Of a stretch of DNA of 64,000 nt, positions 31,120 to 54,409 are shown in pieces. Location of the stretch: contig JACPOP010000008.1 in NCBI GenBank assembly GCA_016191465.1, forward strand, positions 26,039 through 90,038. The letters run 5' to 3'. The notes below the pieces were generated by a model that saw only the letters and a program-made list of their open reading frames with translations, made no database searches and was not told where the DNA came from. The DNA comes from Chloroflexota bacterium (lineage in GTDB: Bacteria; Chloroflexota; UBA6077; CF-72). Made by a program: the position numbers and the translations under genes. How positions within the stretch are numbered: the first letter of the stretch is position 1; each line of letters opens with the position of its first letter.

Positions 31120-32148
31120 TTGGCACTGAAAGGCCGGGTACTCGGCCTCGCACTCACCGTGCTCTTCCTGTGGCTCGCGGTGCAGCAGGTTGACCCGAGC
31201 AAGCTGGGCTCCGAGCTGGCTCGGGTCAACTACCTGTGGCTCGTGCCGTCCGGGTTGAGCACGCTGGTGGGCTACGGGCTGCGAACCGCGCGCTGGCGAG
31301 CCATTTTGAGCGGCGAGGCCCGGGCCGGCATGCGCACGCTCTTTCCTATCCTGATCATGGGATTTGCCACGAACAACCTGCTCCCGGGCCGACTGGGCGA
31401 ATTCTGGCGTGCCTACTTGCTGGGCCGGAAGCGGAACGTGCGCAAGAGCGCGGCGCTCGCATCCGTCGTCGTGGAGCGGCTGTTCGACGGGATCGTGCTC
31501 ATCCTCATTCTGTCCATCGTGGCACGAGTGGTCCCGCTCCCAGCGCTCGGCCAGCAGGTACAGGTGCTTGCCACTGCAATCTTTCTCGTTGCCACGCTGG
31601 GGATGGCGCTGATCCTGTGGAAGCCAGTCCTGGTGCAGGTGCTTCTGCGGATGGCCCTGCGCCCGGCTCCCGAGCGCATTCGGCAGTGGGTCGAGAGCGT
31701 CTCTGCCGCGTTCCTCGACGGATTAGCGCCCTTGCGCTCGCCGAGCGTGCTCCTCGTGGCCGCCGTATTCTCGGCGGGCGTGTGGCTGTTCGAGGGCGCC
31801 TCGTATTACCTGCTCAGTCGTGGAACAAACCTCGGCCTGGAGGCCGCGATGGAGCTTCCGGCGATGGGTCTGACGCTGGTCATGATCAATCTGGGCATCA
31901 TGGTCCCGGCGGCTCCCGGGTACGTTGGTACGCAGGAGTTTTTCGGCAAGCAGGCTCTCGGCGTCTTCGGGGTTGACCCGGAGTCGGCGCTGGCGCTCGT
32001 GCTGGTCTCCCACGCAGTGCAGTACGCGCTGGTGACCGGGCTTGGGCTGGCGTTCTTCGCGCGCGAGCACCTTTGGCCTTCCAGCCTTGCGCGAGTCACC
32101 GCGGCCGTCGCGGCCCGTGGCGCGCCAGACCCGAAGCCACTCTCCTGA
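31120..32148 (+). CDS. Flippase-like UPF0104 membrane protein, paralog 2
   Basis: Family core LPGRLGEFWRAYLLGRKRNVRKSAALASVVVERLFDGIVLIL… Probable TTG start ~31120. The ORF upstream to 31009 looks non-coding. Confidence 0.7.
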   Translation: MALKGRVLGLALTVLFLWLAVQQVDPSKLGSELARVNYLWLVPSGLSTLVGYGLRTARWRAILSGEARAGMRTLFPILIMGFATNNLLPGRLGEFWRAYLLGRKRNVRKSAALASVVVERLFDGIVLILILSIVARVVPLPALGQQVQVLATAIFLVATLGMALILWKPVLVQVLLRMALRPAPERIRQWVESVSAAFLDGLAPLRSPSVLLVAAVFSAGVWLFEGASYYLLSRGTNLGLEAAMELPAMGLTLVMINLGIMVPAAPGYVGTQEFFGKQALGVFGVDPESALALVLVSHAVQYALVTGLGLAFFAREHLWPSSLARVTAAVAARGAPDPKPLS

Positions 32149-37816: not shown

Positions 37817-38335
37817 GTGCGAATTTGCTCCACATGCTGCCAAGCCTTCGAGCCGTCGAGCCGACACCGTGCCTGCCCCGCGTGCCGGGCGCGCGCGGCG
37901 AAGCGTGCCTGCCCGAAGTGCGGCGCCCTTATCCAGGCGAAGTCCCGGACATGCGCTGGCTGCGTTGTCGCGCGCGATTTCAGCGGCTCGCGGAACCCAA
38001 ACTGGAAGGGTGAAGCGGCACGCCACAAGAGCTACCACGGGTATGTTTACGTGCGCCGACCAGACCACCCACGGGGCGTGAAGAACGGCGGGTATGTCTT
38101 TGAACACATCATCGTCATGGAGTCATTGCTGGGTCGCCGGTTACTGCCCAGTGAGAACGTCCACCACAAGAGTGGAGTAAAGACCGATAATCGTGCTGAG
38201 AACCTCGAGTTGTGGGTGCGTGGGCAACCAGGCGGGCAGCGGGTTGACGACGCGGTGGCTTGGGCCCTCGCCATCCTTAACCACTACGCACCGGAGCGAC
38301 TCGCTCTCAGCGCTCGATCTCAGACTTCCAAATGA
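37817..38335 (+). CDS. HNH homing-type endonuclease with N-terminal Cys-rich zinc ribbon
   Basis: HNH signature …NGGYVFEHIIVMESLLGRRLLPSENVHHKSGVKTDNRAENLELW…, typical of phage or mobile HNH nucleases. Confidence 0.8.
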   Translation: MRICSTCCQAFEPSSRHRACPACRARAAKRACPKCGALIQAKSRTCAGCVVARDFSGSRNPNWKGEAARHKSYHGYVYVRRPDHPRGVKNGGYVFEHIIVMESLLGRRLLPSENVHHKSGVKTDNRAENLELWVRGQPGGQRVDDAVAWALAILNHYAPERLALSARSQTSK

Positions 38336-38375
38336 ACGAGGCCCTGCCAATTGGCAGGGCCTCGTTCATTTGGTG
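38330..38375. terminator. 46-bp perfect palindrome (21-bp stem, AATT loop) acting as a bidirectional terminator for HNH (+) and tmRNA (-)
   Basis: ccaaatgaacgaggccctgcc-aatt-ggcagggcctcgttcatttgg read directly. Overlaps the HNH stop codon and abuts the tmRNA 3' CCA. Confidence 0.55.
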
Positions 38376-38725
38376 GAGGTGGGGGGTAATTGAAACCCCC
38401 GTCCAGGGCAGGTTGACTGGAGATGTACTACAGGCTTGTTCGGTGATTTAGCTCTTATGCCTCAGGCTCTCGCCGACAGGATCTCGAGGCACCAGCCGAG
38501 TAGTCTTTTGTGCGCCTTACCCGGCGTTCCAGCGCACAGCAACCTAACTAAGTGGCTTCAGATTCCGGCCCATCAGGTGGAGGCCGGAGTGAAGTACGCG
38601 GGGTTTAGGCCGCGTAAGCGAGTTCGCGATTGCCAGTTAATGGCGTGGTAGCGGATTTTCGAGGGAGCCACCATCCTCGGCCTGCAATCTACAGATCTTC
38701 CCCTCTGTCGAAACCTGACACCCCC
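38361..38725 (-). ncRNA. ssrA: tmRNA (transfer-messenger RNA)
   Basis: On the - strand the 5' end reads GGGGGUGUCAGGUUUCGACAGAGGGG… (the canonical tmRNA 5' tRNA-like half). The 3' end reads GGACGGGGGUUUCAAUUACCCCCCACCUCCACCA (T-arm plus acceptor plus CCA). An internal tag ORF ends …N-R-E-L-A-Y-A-A-UAA. Sits immediately downstream of smpB. Confidence 0.85.
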
Positions 38726-42095: not shown

Positions 42096-42161
42096 CACCG
42101 AGCAAGCGAAGAGCCCCGATTCAGAAGTCACTCTGAATCGGGGCTCTTCGCTTGCTCGGTG
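42096..42161. terminator. 66-bp perfect hairpin (30-bp stem, 6-nt loop) downstream of gdh
   Basis: caccgagcaagcgaagagccccgattcaga-agtcac-tctgaatcggggctcttcgcttgctcggtg read directly. Lies ~45 nt after the gdh stop. A second 9-bp-stem hairpin lies at 41943-41963. Confidence 0.5.
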
Positions 42162-50449: not shown

Positions 50450-51091
50450 ATGTTTCGCCCCTCCTACCACCCCCGGCTCGAATTGATCGTCGGTCCCATG
50501 TTCAGTGGCAAGAGCGCCGAGCTCGTACGGCGCGCACGTTTGGCCGAAATAGCCCACCAGCGGGTGCAGGTCTTTCGCCCTCTGACGGATACCCGGACTC
50601 CAGAGCAGGCGGTGTTCTCACGCAACGGCACCCAGGTGGCCGCGCGGACGGTCGTCGGTGTGCGTGAGTTGATCCAATCGCTCGCCGACGATGTCGAAGT
50701 GGTCGGCTTCGATGAGGCGCAGTTCTTCGAGGCTGATCTCGCCGACGCGGTGCAGTACCTCCTGGTGCACGGCAAGCGCATCATCGTGGCCGCGCTGGAC
50801 CTCGACTTCGCGAGCCGCCCCTTCGGCGCGATCCCATCGCTGCTGGCCCTCGCCGACACGGTGGACAAGCTGACGGCCGTATGCCAGCGCTGCCACTCTC
50901 TCTTCGCCACCCGAACGCAGCGCCTCGTGGATGGCGCGCCGGCAACGGTGGACAGCCCGGTCGTGCTGGTGGACGATGCGCCCACGGAACAGGCGCACGT
51001 GGCCTACGAGGCTCGGTGTATCGATTGCTACCAGCCGCCTACCAGCGGGCCCTGGTTTCAGCCCTCCTACTGGGAGGTGACCGGTACCTGA
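50450..51091 (+). CDS. tdk: Thymidine kinase
   Basis: P-loop VGPMFSGKSAEL, VVGFDEAQFF, C-terminal zinc ribbon CQRC…CIDC. Confidence 0.9.
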   Translation: MFRPSYHPRLELIVGPMFSGKSAELVRRARLAEIAHQRVQVFRPLTDTRTPEQAVFSRNGTQVAARTVVGVRELIQSLADDVEVVGFDEAQFFEADLADAVQYLLVHGKRIIVAALDLDFASRPFGAIPSLLALADTVDKLTAVCQRCHSLFATRTQRLVDGAPATVDSPVVLVDDAPTEQAHVAYEARCIDCYQPPTSGPWFQPSYWEVTGT

Positions 51092-52266
51092 ACCGGCTTT
51101 GACAGCGCTCGTTCCGAGGCCCAGGCCGCGACCTGCGGCGCGAGCCGGGCAAGCACTTCATTCGTCACCAGTTGCCGCTCGGAGGCGATTCGCACCCCGC
51201 GCGCGGTCCGTTCCAGGACCCCTCCGTCAAGGAGAACCTGCCCCTCCTCGCCCAGCACCTCGCCAAGTTCGGCCTGAAACCGATGCCGCAGAACCGCGGC
51301 CGAAACCCCCTCGCGCAGCCGGAGTCCCAGGGTCAGGAAGTCCAGCATCGCGTCAGCCAGCCCAAATGGCTCGTCCTCCACGCGTGCCGCGGCTCCGCCA
51401 GTGGCAATCGAGCCGATGTATCGTTCCAGGGCCGGGGTGTTCTTCCACCTGCGGCCCTCGAACGACGACGCTGCTCCCGCCCCGAGGCCAATCCACTGCC
51501 CGTCGCGCCAGTACGTGAGGTTATGTCGACTTGCCTCGCCCGGCCGCGCCCAGTTGGAGATCTCGTACTGCTCGTAATCAGCGGTTGCGAGCACCGCACG
51601 CGCCAGGTCGTACTGGGCCGCCAGCGCATCGTCGTCCGGCAGACGCAGCCTGCCACGGGCCACGTCGCGCCCCATCGGCACCTTCTCGTCCACCGTCAGC
51701 AGGTAACACGACAGGTGGTCCGGGCTCAGCGCCAGCATCGCTTCGAGGGTGCTTCGCCAGTGTTCCAGGCTTTGGCTGGGCAGACCGTAGATTAGGTCCA
51801 GGTTGAGCCGCAGGTCCGCATCCTTCGCCCAACGGGCCGCCCGCCGCACGTCCTCGACTGAATGGCGCCGGCCGAGGAGCTGAAGATACGCGGGGTCGAG
51901 GCTCTGGACGCCCATGCTCACGCGGTTGACCCCGGCAGCGCGAAAGCCGCGCATCTTCGCCGCGTCCGCGTCGCCGGGGTTCGCCTCCAGGGTCACTTCG
52001 GCGCCGTCATCCAGCAGGACCATGCGCCGCACCGCCTTCAGCAGAGCGCTCACCTGGTCTGGACGCATCAGCGAGGGCGTGCCCCCGCCGAAGAACACAC
52101 TGTGCGCATGCAATCCGAGGCCCTCGTAGCGGCGCGCTTCGGCGCGAACGGCGTCGAGGTAGGCGTCGATGCGGTCAAACCCGGTCGCCTGACGGTCGAA
52201 GTCGCAGTACGGACAGATGGACAGGCAGAACGGGAAGTGAACGTAGACGGCGATGGACTCAGACAC
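51067..52266 (-). CDS. hemW: Radical SAM haem chaperone HemW (HemN-like, oxygen-independent coproporphyrinogen oxidase family)
   Basis: VYVHFPFCLSICPYCDF radical-SAM CxxxCxxC at the N-terminus. 399 aa. GTG start at 52264-52266. Confidence 0.9.
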   Translation of the reverse strand: MSESIAVYVHFPFCLSICPYCDFDRQATGFDRIDAYLDAVRAEARRYEGLGLHAHSVFFGGGTPSLMRPDQVSALLKAVRRMVLLDDGAEVTLEANPGDADAAKMRGFRAAGVNRVSMGVQSLDPAYLQLLGRRHSVEDVRRAARWAKDADLRLNLDLIYGLPSQSLEHWRSTLEAMLALSPDHLSCYLLTVDEKVPMGRDVARGRLRLPDDDALAAQYDLARAVLATADYEQYEISNWARPGEASRHNLTYWRDGQWIGLGAGAASSFEGRRWKNTPALERYIGSIATGGAAARVEDEPFGLADAMLDFLTLGLRLREGVSAAVLRHRFQAELGEVLGEEGQVLLDGGVLERTARGVRIASERQLVTNEVLARLAPQVAAWASERALSKPVQVPVTSQ

Positions 52267-52427
52267 CGACCCAGGGCCTTTTCACCAGTTCCGGCCTTCA
52301 GATGAGATGGGCCTGGCGCCGGGAAGGCGACGCTTGGTCCTCCTACCGTTGTCGCAGCAGACTTCGTCGCTACCCAGGTCAGGCGCAGCCAATCTCGTCA
52401 CCTGGTGAAAAGGCCCTGACACCGACC
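52263..52427. mobile_element. MITE-like element: 17-bp perfect terminal inverted repeats (cagggccttttcaccag / ctggtgaaaaggccctg) flanked by 9-bp direct repeats (acaccgacc)
   Basis: Left direct repeat at 52263-52271. Left inverted repeat at 52272-52288. Internal ~113 nt. Right inverted repeat at 52402-52418. Right direct repeat at 52419-52427. All read directly. No ORF inside. Lies in the hemW/methyltransferase divergent region. Confidence 0.4.
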
Positions 52428-52435
52428 GGCTTCCT

Positions 52436-52469
52436 ATTGCACTGAGACGTCTGGACGTCTATCATAGAG
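52436..52469 (+). promoter_or_regulatory. Sigma-70-like promoter TTGCAC-17-TATCAT placed for a leaderless methyltransferase mRNA, with a palindromic operator (agacgtc-tgg-gacgtct) in the spacer
   Basis: Hexamers and the 17-nt spacer read directly. Only 7 nt separate the -10 from the ATG at 52470, leaving no room for an RBS. Confidence 0.4.
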
Positions 52470-53630
52470 TTGATGGTTCGCCGCAGACCCGGGGAAATCC
52501 GAGACGCTATTCGCGACTATCTCGAGGGGCAACGCGCAGATGCGAGTGTATCCGACATTCGGTTGTCGGTTGCTGCGCGGCTTGGGGACGTGGCCGCATC
52601 ATCTGTCCGGTCATACCTTCGACTGAACGCGGGGGATGCGTTTGTTCGAACGAGCTACGGCAGGTACGGCCTACGGTCCGGCGTGAGTAGGCGTGAGGTG
52701 GGAGAAGCGCTCGGGGTCTACAGCGCTTCCGTCGTGCGTCAGGGAAGAGCCGAGCTCTGGGAGGGAGACTGCCTCGCATGGCTGGAAAACAGACCTGAGC
52801 GCTCAGTCCATGCCGTGGTTACCGACCCACCGTACGGTCTTCTCGAATATACGCCCGAGCAGCAGGCCAAGCTCCGCGACCGGAGTGGCGGCGTGTGGCG
52901 TATCCCGCCATCCTTTGACGGCCACGAGCGCTCGCCAGTTCCGAGGTTCACAGTTCTCAAGGGAAAGGATCTCGCGGAATTGGAACGATTCTTTCACGTG
53001 TGGGCACTTCGTCTGTACCCAGTCCTTGTACCCGGGGCCAACGTGCTTATCGCATCGAATCCGCTTCTTTCGTGCCTGGTTTCAGGGGCGGTGGCTCGGG
53101 CGGGGTTTGAACGGCGGGGTGAGATCGTTCGGCTCGTCATGACTATGCGAGGTGGGGACCGCCCGAAGAATGCCCATGAGGAGTTCCCCGATGTCAGCGT
53201 CATGCCGCGATCCATGTGGGAACCATGGTTGCTGTTCCGCAAACCCCTCGAAGGGCGCGTCCAGGACAATCTTCGCACATGGGGAACTGGGGGACTCAGG
53301 CGGATTTCTCCTGAACAGCCGTTTGGCGACGTAATTCAATCAAGACCGACATCCCCACGCGAACGGCGTCTGGCGCCGCACCCAAGCCTCAAGCCGCAGG
53401 CGTTCCTGAGGCAGATCGTGAGAGCCGCCCTCCCCCAAGGCAATGGAATAGTGCTCGATCCGTTTGCAGGCTCGGGATCGACTCTAGCCGCGGCGGAAGC
53501 AATCGGCTACCAGTCGATTGGCGTGGAACAGGACCCACACTACTTCCGGATGGCTGGAGCAGCGATTCCGCAACTCGCCTCCTTCCAGATCGAACGGTCG
53601 AACCAGTTGAGCCTTCGTTACTCTCGATAG
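52470..53630 (+). CDS. Site-specific DNA methyltransferase (N4-cytosine/N6-adenine, beta-class, PF01555-like) with a putative N-terminal winged-helix domain
   Basis: Motif IV DPPY (AVVTDPPYGLLEY) precedes motif I (LDPFAGSGSTLAAAEAIG). A ~100-aa N-terminal extension is present. Local GC is well below the genome average. Confidence 0.85.
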   Translation: MMVRRRPGEIRDAIRDYLEGQRADASVSDIRLSVAARLGDVAASSVRSYLRLNAGDAFVRTSYGRYGLRSGVSRREVGEALGVYSASVVRQGRAELWEGDCLAWLENRPERSVHAVVTDPPYGLLEYTPEQQAKLRDRSGGVWRIPPSFDGHERSPVPRFTVLKGKDLAELERFFHVWALRLYPVLVPGANVLIASNPLLSCLVSGAVARAGFERRGEIVRLVMTMRGGDRPKNAHEEFPDVSVMPRSMWEPWLLFRKPLEGRVQDNLRTWGTGGLRRISPEQPFGDVIQSRPTSPRERRLAPHPSLKPQAFLRQIVRAALPQGNGIVLDPFAGSGSTLAAAEAIGYQSIGVEQDPHYFRMAGAAIPQLASFQIERSNQLSLRYSR

Positions 53631-54229
53631 ATCCAATTGGATCTGAGCTTCGCGAGACCGGCCTTATTCGGGCTCGCGGTCCGGGTGCCGAGCTGCCCTC
53701 TGTCGTTCCTGCGGAAATCGGCTGTATCAAGCTGCGCCAGCAGAACCTCAGTAATGCGTGTCGGCGCACGGTTGACCACGGGTTCCGCGAGGTGGTCAAC
53801 CGAGTATCGGAATACGCACAGCCAAGCCGAACGAGCACCATGGGCATCAACCCCCCCGGACCCTTTGGTTGCCTTGATTTCCACGCCATCCGCCCCAGCG
53901 TGGACAGCGTTATTGGCGTAGCGACCGCTCGGGATTAAGTCTGGGTGTCCGTTATGAAAGCGATTCACGGTCAGCACTCGCGAGTGGCTAGCCAATGACG
54001 CCGAAGCGGCATCACTCATGATCCCGCTAAAGATCGCCGGCCTCACTGTCTCCTCTAGGCGAAGCAGCCCCCGCGCGAGCAACGCCGTGTTGATGTCGAA
54101 CAACAAGTCATACACGTCCTGCATCGCCATTTGGAAATCTGCAAGCCTCAATTGGTAAGGAAGGACCGCCGCCTGATTAAGGCTTGCTTGGTCCGGCTGG
54201 GCCCGCTGCACGAGTGTGACTGCCATTGC
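53618..54229 (-). CDS. Putative type II restriction endonuclease (PD-(D/E)xK)
   Basis: Convergent with and 3'-overlapping the methyltransferase. Carries a candidate PD…ExK motif (GHPDLIP…GADGVEIKATKG). Same low-GC island. Start ambiguous (ATG 54229, downstream ATGs, or GTG 54358). No family identified. Confidence 0.5.
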   Translation of the reverse strand, partial: AMAVTLVQRAQPDQASLNQAAVLPYQLRLADFQMAMQDVYDLLFDINTALLARGLLRLEETVRPAIFSGIMSDAASASLASHSRVLTVNRFHNGHPDLIPSGRYANNAVHAGADGVEIKATKGSGGVDAHGARSAWLCVFRYSVDHLAEPVVNRAPTRITEVLLAQLDTADFRRNDRGQLGTRTASPNKAGLAKLRSNWIYRE

Positions 54230-54409
54230 GTGGGGATGATATGCCCCACGTGTCCGTACGATGAACGCGCTTGCGAGCCAAGCGAGACCGGGATTTCGCG
54301 GCTGGCCCGTGGCCGTTCGACCCGAGCGCACCCCCGGCCAGCAGATGCGACGTTGCACTTACACTCAAGCCGTCTGGCTAATTGAGCGGCGAAGGACTGT
54401 CACTCTCGG

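Follow-up and report, generated by a model that had tools for sequence, protein, structure and literature searches.

Bacterial MITEs include the Correia/NEMIS elements of Neisseria, and transposition in the ISAs1 family of insertion sequences has, to our knowledge, been little studied. In this ISfinder family, target duplications span 8–10 bp. ISAs1 has been described with terminal repeats of 14–22 bp that start CAGGG and with a 10-bp direct repeat (PMC11946415). MITEPye1 of Paracoccus yeei is a MITE related to IS1182, recognized as such by its small size, terminal inverted repeats of an IS family, direct repeats, lack of a transposase and a long stem-loop when co-transcribed (PMC11578231). 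In the literature searched, we found no description of MITE derivatives of ISAs1. The element analysed here resembles MITEPye1 in being small and devoid of a transposase, in its IS-matching inverted repeats and flanking direct repeats, and in the long stem-loop predicted for it on co-transcription with neighbouring genes (PMC11578231). It differs from MITEPye1 and from Correia/NEMIS elements in parent family (here ISAs1), in repeat sequence and in duplication length. Whereas those elements are described as present in multiple copies per genome and as mostly intergenic, here a single copy is visible, and it lies in a translation-initiation region.

The window, that is, the whole 64-kb stretch of DNA under analysis, contains a transposase-less element of 147 bp in which 113 nt (52289-52401, without transposase coding capacity) are enclosed by a 17-nt inverted repeat with 100% complementary arms. 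The arm proximal to hemW reads CAGGGCCTTTTCACCAG (52272-52288) and the distal arm CTGGTGAAAAGGCCCTG (52402-52418). Each arm abuts one copy of a target-site duplication, ACACCGACC, the two copies being identical at 9/9 positions; the hemW-proximal copy (52263-52271) contains the GTG start codon of hemW, and the distal copy (52419-52427) contains a second GTG on the minus strand (52422-52420). The 17-bp terminal repeats and 9-bp duplication that the earlier note had read from the sequence are thus both exact. A repeat finder returned a direct repeat of 10 nt, GACACCGACC (52262-52271 and 52418-52427), the right copy of which takes in the final G of the inverted repeat; the strict flank-versus-flank duplication is 9 nt. 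This is the single long-spacer repeat pair of its kind in the window, and no second copy of the 17-mer occurs elsewhere in the 64 kb with up to three mismatches allowed. We calculate that 64 kb should contain ~0.002 perfect 17-nt inverted repeats lying within 400 nt, and that requiring a 9/9 direct repeat against both arms multiplies this by a further ~4e-6; a chance origin of the structure is not credible. With terminal inverted repeats, a directly flanking target-site duplication, no capacity to encode a transposase and a length well under ~600 bp, the element has the make-up of a MITE. The junction between hemW and the element was matched exactly, to 99 nt into the element, in an independent Logan assembly of SRR12113392; the Logan contig ends mid-element.

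Judged by sequence identity, the ends of the element come from the ISAs1 family. Insertion sequences of ~1.4 kb in MAGs of Chloroflexota, Dehalococcoidia and Acidobacteriota have exactly this 17-mer as their terminal repeat. A 1370-bp element (L039) carries it at both ends, and a 1425-bp element (L046) carries it exactly at one end and with 1 mismatch at the other; the hemW-proximal arm is identical to these element ends. The ORFs of both elements contain PF13808 and PF01609, and those of L039 score 126 and 88.7 bits against the NCBIfam model NF033564, ‘ISAs1 family transposase’ (cut-off 70 bits). At two other loci (L052 and L030), ISAs1 transposase genes adjoin the 17-mer, with the left end beside the transposase N-terminus. 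In a groundwater Chloroflexi MAG of 68% GC (L037), the left end of an ISAs1 element matches the distal arm at 19/19 nt, the 17-mer plus two further bases, and is followed by a transposase N-terminus, MMRKPLPHAPPALPGSL, that resembles the one in L039. The 17-mer is therefore shared at 17/17 positions with the ends of transposase-encoding elements at L039, L046, L052, L030 and L037, all of them in other genomes. A scan of 185,579 species genomes, a collection to which the source MAG does not belong, returned 73 matches to the 17-mer versus ~69 estimated by chance; most are coincidences in coding sequence, and only ~10, those at insertion-sequence ends, are meaningful.

Compared with ISAs1 of Aeromonas salmonicida and Francci3_2330/2941 of Frankia, the repeat CAGGGCCTTTTCACCAG likewise begins CAGGG and, at 17 bp, falls within the 14–22-bp range, and the 9-bp duplication at hemW is near the described 10 bp (PMC11946415). 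By contrast, the element measures 147 bp rather than ~1.4 kb and has no transposase gene; a tblastn search with ISAs1 transposases found none in the element or in the 64-kb window, bearing out what had been claimed for the window from its letters. Because it lacks a transposase, the element is a non-autonomous derivative and not itself an ISAs1 insertion sequence. Its interior, moreover, is not recognizably related to the full-length elements retrieved: in comparisons with the 5′ and 3′ regions of those at L039, L046, L025, L052, L032, L037, L012 and L030, none scored convincingly above shuffles, and for this reason left and right ends are not assigned and no parent element is named. No target duplications are seen in the retrieved full-length elements, L046 lacking one and L039 being truncated by its contig end. 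The L039 transposase ORF (...GRVW*) stops within the repeat, at a TGA corresponding to the TGA of the hemW element, and the L046 transposase ORF (...GRL*) also stops within the repeat, at an in-frame TGA one codon earlier. The residues ..GRNW* read from the hemW element resemble the ..GRVW* of L039, which is a hint only, as the resemblance is not significant at the DNA level.

These data are best explained, with high confidence, by insertion of an ISAs1-family MITE in the start region of hemW with a 9-bp target duplication. The proposal of a non-autonomous transposon with terminal repeats and a target duplication is supported, the 17-mer now being recognized as the end of elements that encode ISAs1 transposases. 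By analogy with the family, the element would keep only two 17-bp repeats recognized by an ISAs1-type DDE transposase, along with 113 nt of non-coding filler, and would have been mobilized in trans by the transposase of a full-length relative. The target would have been cut in staggered fashion, 9 bp apart, and its repair would have duplicated ACACCGACC. In hemW orientation, the sequence hit would have read GGTCG-GTG-T, that is, the last 5 nt of the spacer between ribosome-binding site (RBS) and start, the GTG and one further base; the empty site under the MITE explanation would be AGGAAGCCGGTCGGTGTCTGAGTCC, joined directly. Removing the element and one repeat in silico indeed restores AGGAAG-ccggtcg-GTG on the hemW strand, with the 7-nt spacer claimed previously. 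The insertion does lie at the hemW start, but its placement between RBS and start codon has to be refined, since the 9-bp target included the GTG itself. Perfect repeats together with a perfect duplication suggest that the event was recent. The hemW element offers a clean, datable case of a transposon being active in an uncultured lineage of groundwater Chloroflexi.

The affected gene, hemW (51067-52266, minus strand), encodes a radical-SAM haem chaperone with Radical_SAM and HemN_C domains in an intact ORF of 399 aa. Its GTG (52266-52264, minus strand) falls within the left direct repeat, as had been noticed from the sequence. This start is confirmed by homologues that begin 2–6 residues before the conserved [AI][LV]YVHFPFC motif, the NCBI gene call (P0001, 399 aa) uses the same one, and all conserved residues of the N-terminus are present. 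With the start codon inside the 9-bp target, the GTG was duplicated, and it is the upstream copy that keeps the RBS. The presumed original RBS, an AGGAAG read from the sequence (52430-52435, minus strand), precedes the distal GTG by 7 nt, and its distance from the hemW GTG, which itself follows the 17-bp stem, has grown by 156 nt. The insertion has thereby made an upstream ORF (52282-52422, minus strand) that starts at the distal GTG, runs for 46 codons and ends at a TGA in the inverted repeat, 15 nt before the hemW GTG. It is in frame with that GTG because element plus duplication amount to 156 nt, or 52 codons. On the minus strand, the hemW-proximal arm reads CTGG-TGA-AAAGG-CCCTG, in which the TGA occupies 52284-52282 and is followed by an AAAGG stretch (52281-52277), 10 nt ahead of the hemW GTG. 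The exact sequences of the element-encoded peptides are not on record in protein collections, and the 45-aa peptide, used as a query, has no words in common with anything in them; the absence of homologues in these collections identifies the upstream ORF as incidental to the insertion rather than a true gene.

A bacterial ribosome can terminate and reinitiate over a distance such as the 15 nt found here between stop and start. In the mechanism that we propose, the original AGGAAG and the distal GTG would now start translation of the 46-codon ORF through the element; ribosomes translating this ORF would melt the 17-bp hairpin, terminate at the TGA and restart at the hemW GTG, and the AAAGG stretch may help them to do so. 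Going by this geometry, translation of HemW probably relies on reinitiation beyond the upstream stop. For annotation, the insertion explains an otherwise puzzling hemW leader and carries a warning of possibly altered hemW expression. The stop-restart geometry, with its in-frame upstream ORF, also offers a small, testable case of how a gene can survive an insertion at its start codon.

Silencing of hemW is a possible but less likely alternative to restart: the insertion would have left no functional reinitiation, and the locus would be recently disabled and not yet decayed. This view bears on what the insertion did to hemW and leaves the identity of the element untouched. It is favoured by the displaced RBS, 156 nt further upstream with the element in between, and by the position of the GTG behind a 17-bp stem, and the repeats, being perfect, imply that the time elapsed was too short for decay. 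A sigma-70 promoter scan around the element found no site, including none for hemW, and the native hemW promoter region appears to have been displaced already by a ~2-kb cassette; for both these reasons hemW could be poorly expressed. Against silencing, however, the upstream ORF stops only 15 nt from the GTG, the AAAGG stretch is positioned 10 nt upstream of it, and the hemW ORF is fully intact with every conserved N-terminal residue. One may also ask whether ends of this ISAs1 lineage constitute a portable ‘stop-and-restart’ module, an idea that we regard as speculative and rather improbable. Because the two repeats are identical, each tip reads outward TGA-AAAGG-CCCTG. An in-frame insertion in a translation-initiation region would end the intruding frame via the TGA of the tip, and the tip would also offer a Shine-Dalgarno-like AAGG a few nucleotides ahead of the target duplication; hemW would stay translated by coupling to the 46-codon upstream ORF, whose translation melts the hairpin. 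If this were true, such elements could enter start codons without killing the gene, and could turn a simple leader into one that is gated by a hairpin and depends on an upstream ORF. Otherwise, the hemW element is a mobile element of an ordinary kind that has inserted at a somewhat unusual position.

Short elements with similar tips occur elsewhere. The pattern CAGGGCCTTTTC-N108-138-GAAAAGGCCCTG, for which <1 match is estimated by chance, was found at 12 metagenome loci, 10 of them distinct (JGI/ENA, L075-L086). These elements are 134–158 nt long and have the same 12–13-nt tips, and several are flanked by duplications of 9–10 bp: exact ones of 10, 10 and 9 bp at L078, L079 and L080/L082, respectively, and one of 9/10 at L081. 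They occupy other genomic sites, and apart from one element they have only the 12–13-nt tips in common with the hemW element; their interiors otherwise do not align (column identity averages 54%, a figure owed to the tips). The exception, present at L076 and L085, is 146 nt long and adjoins an unrelated ATPase-like ORF; it shares with the hemW element the subterminal motifs ACGAGATTGG and CCGGCC at equal offsets, and its interior similarity reaches z = 3.3. Through these comparisons, unannotated hairpin elements of ~150 nt in soil and groundwater metagenomes are tied to the ISAs1 family.

The metagenome elements also bear on a different history for the hemW site, in which a full-length ISAs1 inserted at the hemW start with a 9-bp duplication and was then reduced in situ by an internal deletion, never having moved as a MITE. 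The presence of only one copy in the 64-kb window is in keeping with such a course, as is the hemW-proximal end, which keeps the frame and last residues (..GRNW*) in a manner like the ..GRVW* of L039 and the ..GRL* of L046 and would fit a remnant of the coding end; yet this C-terminal resemblance lacks statistical significance at the DNA level. By contrast, another organism carries the 146-nt element of L076/L085 at an unrelated site, with the subterminal motifs at equal offsets and an interior similarity of z = 3.3, which suggests that the short form was already in existence and mobile in its own right. That the family forms mobile miniatures is shown by the ten distinct elements of 134–158 nt, several of them with duplications. 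We consequently regard deletion in place as unlikely, and insertion of a ready-made MITE remains our preferred account.

Folding of the element was compared with that of shuffled sequences. The whole element gave z-scores of −4.5 and −3.7, a better fold than that of the shuffles, whereas the 113-nt interior alone did not fold significantly better than they did (z = −1.5); the fold signal of the whole element comes from the terminal repeats only, and the assertion that the internal region is itself structured does not hold. An Rfam search of the element at E <= 10 gave one chance-level snoRNA match (E = 8.7; 14.5 bits versus a gathering score of 45), and at gathering thresholds the whole window yielded one tmRNA and one tRNA only, with nothing at the element. 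No terminator-like sites were found in 52100-52800, and there is no U-run after the stem on either strand. As for the site itself, the relatives L087, L088 and L090 have an aspS-hemW spacing of 103–178 nt, and the terminal-repeat sequence is absent from L087-L095; the nearest available relatives at the locus are distant (HemW 65–66% identical), the best HemW match overall being 69% identical. A host cis-regulatory RNA or operator serving hemW or the divergent methyltransferase gene, with the direct repeat incidental, would suit the z-scores of the whole segment and its location in a 5′ leader between divergent genes, but this reading is largely refuted, and we consider it extremely improbable, given an interior that is not significantly structured, no Rfam match beyond that chance-level one, a stem identical to the ends of transposons encoding ISAs1 transposases, the absence of the element from relatives’ hemW leaders and from homologous methyltransferase cassettes, and an abutting 9/9 direct repeat that transposition predicts and a hairpin does not need. 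The preference expressed in the earlier note for a mobile element over a regulatory RNA is upheld by the Rfam and interior-folding results.

The divergent methyltransferase gene belongs to a restriction-modification-like cassette of lower GC (~0.60 versus ~0.68 in the flanks) that lies between hemW and aspS at approximately 52440-54400 and is not part of the element. The element was considered as a component of this cassette and rejected as such: the cassettes at L092 and L095 lack the terminal sequence, and the far border of the cassette next to hemW carries no further copy of the repeat. The cassette was inserted earlier than, or separately from, the element. It comprises an N4/N6 methyltransferase identified by Pfam (52473-53630, plus strand) and a conserved partner of ~200 aa (53618-54226, minus strand), and the same convergent methyltransferase/partner gene pair is also found at the unrelated sites L092 and L095.

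A repeat finder and direct reading of 51900-52800 delimit the element (52272-52418, 147 bp) by a 17-nt inverted repeat, CAGGGCCTTTTCACCAG at 52272-52288 and CTGGTGAAAAGGCCCTG at 52402-52418, whose arms are 100% complementary and separated by 113 nt. Both arms are abutted by a direct repeat, ACACCGACC (52263-52271 and 52419-52427), that measures exactly 9 nt when flank is compared with flank; the repeat finder gives it as 10 nt, GACACCGACC, since the right copy then includes the inverted repeat's final G. Both sets of repeats in the earlier note are thereby confirmed. Among the 13 perfect inverted repeats in the window, the element is the sole pair with a long spacer; no second match to the 17-mer occurs in the window with up to three mismatches allowed, and the element carries no transposase.

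Scanning the exact 17-mer against one genome per species returned 73 matches, compared with ~69 estimated by chance. Most are coincidences inside genes, and a subset sits at the ends of insertion sequences. An Acidobacteriota MAG (L039) holds a 1370-bp element with the 17-mer at both ends, and a Chloroflexota MAG (L046) a 1425-bp element with the 17-mer exact at one end and one mismatch at the other; in two Dehalococcoidia MAGs (L052 and L030), homologous transposase genes adjoin the 17-mer. In a 68%-GC groundwater Chloroflexi MAG (L037), 19 of 19 nt match, and the transposase N-terminus that comes next resembles the one in L039. This last ISAs1 transposase (L037:1-207, minus strand) breaks off after about 26 codons and gives way to a different ORF, starting MSTRKPYPSDV, which resembles an IS5-like transposase N-terminus; the locus looks like nested insertion sequences. 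Proteins encoded by the 17-mer-bounded elements contain PF13808 and PF01609 and match NCBIfam NF033564, 'ISAs1 family transposase' (126 and 88.7 bits for two L039 fragments; cut-off 70). ISAs1 elements are described with terminal repeats of 14-22 bp that start CAGGG and, where they have inserted, a direct repeat of 10 bp (PMC11946415). The window element likewise starts CAGGG, with a repeat of 17 bp and a duplication of 9 bp, and it has no transposase. Because of this lack, it is not itself an ISAs1 insertion sequence but a derivative of the family, that is, a non-autonomous ISAs1-type element. The non-autonomous transposon proposed in the earlier note is thus real and correctly interpreted: copies of the repeat occur in other genomes, at the ends of ISAs1-family elements, and short relatives with duplications exist. 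By analogy with the family, a trans-acting ISAs1 DDE transposase would bind both 17-bp repeats and cut with a 9-bp stagger, and repair would duplicate the target.

The insertion site coincides with the start of hemW (51067-52266, minus strand; Radical_SAM and HemN_C), whose GTG (52266-52264) does lie within the left direct repeat, as the earlier note had it. Homologues support this start, beginning 2-6 residues ahead of a conserved [AI][LV]YVHFPFC motif (compare MPDSIALYVHFPFC in the relative L090 with MSESIAVYVHFPFC in the window), and the NCBI gene call (P0001) gives an identical 399 aa. In an independent Logan assembly of run SRR12113392, hemW and the adjoining 99 nt of the element are identical, which rules out a MAG-assembly artefact at the junction. 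On the hemW strand the target reads GGTCG-GTG-T, and hence the start codon itself was duplicated. As read from the sequence, the distal GTG (52422-52420, minus strand), with AGGAAG (52435-52430) 7 nt upstream, begins an ORF of 46 codons that crosses the element and ends at a TGA (52284-52282) within the proximal repeat; the hemW GTG follows 15 nt later, with AAAGG (52281-52277) 10 nt upstream. Both GTGs share one frame because 147 + 9 = 156 nt, or 52 codons. The L039 transposase stops at the corresponding TGA in its repeat (..GRVW*) and that of L046 at an in-frame TGA one codon earlier (..GRL*); thus, the TGA is an inherited feature of the element end. HemW synthesis probably now relies on ribosomes that read the upstream ORF, melt the 17-bp stem, terminate and then reinitiate at hemW. 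Alternatively, the insertion may effectively have silenced hemW, as a scan around the element found no promoter-like site and the native promoter region is displaced by the neighbouring methyltransferase cassette.

A metagenome scan with the pattern CAGGGCCTTTTC-N108-138-GAAAAGGCCCTG recovered 12 loci, 10 of them distinct (L080/L082 are one site in two samples, as are L076/L085), with fewer than one estimated by chance. These elements of 134-158 nt share 12-13-nt tips and are otherwise diverse inside. Flanking duplications are exact in L078 (10 bp), L079 (10 bp) and L080 (9 bp), and match at 9 of 10 positions in L081. The 146-nt L076/L085 element, beside an unrelated ATPase-like ORF, has ACGAGATTGG and CCGGCC in common with the window element, at matching subterminal positions, and alone has notable interior similarity to it (z = 3.3). 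Such relatives at other sites argue that the element was already short when it transposed, and against shortening by deletion in place. Separately, L075:95-432 contains at least three ISAs1-type miniatures (~152 nt each) head to tail with spacers of exactly 9 nt, the target-duplication length, which suggests repeated insertion beside an existing end.

In its size, repeats, duplication, lack of a transposase and ends common to an autonomous insertion-sequence family, the element fits a MITE. A literature search of limited scope found no description of ISAs1-derived MITEs, which does not by itself prove novelty; the less ordinary aspect is insertion at a start codon with an in-frame stop-restart geometry. 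Searches for Rfam-type RNA families across 51500-53200 (E <= 10) returned only one chance-level snoRNA match, and at gathering thresholds the whole window yielded only tmRNA and tRNA-Gln. The whole element folds better than background (z = -4.5 and -3.7), whereas the 113-nt interior alone does not stand out (z = -1.5); the fold signal therefore stems from the terminal repeat, and the earlier description of the interior as itself structured is not supported.

The closest HemW match shares no more than 69% identity with that of the window. In three relatives at 65-66% identity (L087, L088 and L090), aspS and hemW are divergent neighbours 178 or 103 nt apart, compared with 2143 nt in the window. 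The extra DNA comprises the element and a lower-GC cassette (52440-54400; GC ~0.60 versus ~0.68) of two convergent genes: an N4/N6 DNA methyltransferase (52473-53630, plus strand) and a conserved ~200-aa partner (53618-54226, minus strand; NCBI 'hypothetical protein HYX52_02310') that matches nothing in Pfam, NCBIfam or the PDB. Unrelated sites in several phyla (Chloroflexi, Actinomycetota, Longimicrobiales and Betaproteobacteria) also carry the pair, at 57-77% identity; among them are L095 and L092, the latter a defence island in the MAG that also contains L087. The two genes probably make up a mobile module of restriction-modification type that includes an uncharacterised nuclease. Cassette homology stops at about 52440-52445 and the element's terminal sequence is absent from all of L087-L095; element and cassette are therefore independent of each other, and the hemW 5' region has been hit twice.

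The cassette methyltransferase has a ~110-aa N-terminal extension before its catalytic domain. Two GACGTC palindromes, AGACGTCTGGACGTC (52445-52459), lie 13 nt upstream of its ATG; in the 77%-related L092 cassette the motif is kept as AGACGTCTAGACGTC, directly abutting the ATG, and is possibly an operator or recognition site of the system. Within the aspS-hemW spacer of L087 (4836-4996) lies an inverted repeat of ~17 nt, TTCAGCAATCAGCCGTC ... GACGGCTGATTGCTGAA. A portion of its motif, CAATCAGCC, recurs beside aspS in L090, with a similar CAATTAGCC beside aspS in the window (~54372-54380); it is possibly a regulatory site conserved from the ancestral intergenic region.

Other palindromes occur in the window. 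A perfect 23+23-nt palindrome, CCAAATGAACGAGGCCCTGCCAA/TTGGCAGGGCCTCGTTCATTTGG (38328-38373), overlaps the tmRNA gene (tag GNRELAYAA; 38371-38725, minus strand) by the final 3 nt of its 3' end, and the rest lies downstream; no T-run follows it, and it could be a terminator or processing hairpin. At 42096-42161, a perfect hairpin of 30+30 nt closes on a 6-nt loop; it has the 10-mer CCGAGCAAGC in common with an imperfect 37-nt palindrome (31172-31247). This 10-mer occurs three times against 0.4 expected by chance, which may point to a small family of palindromic repeats.
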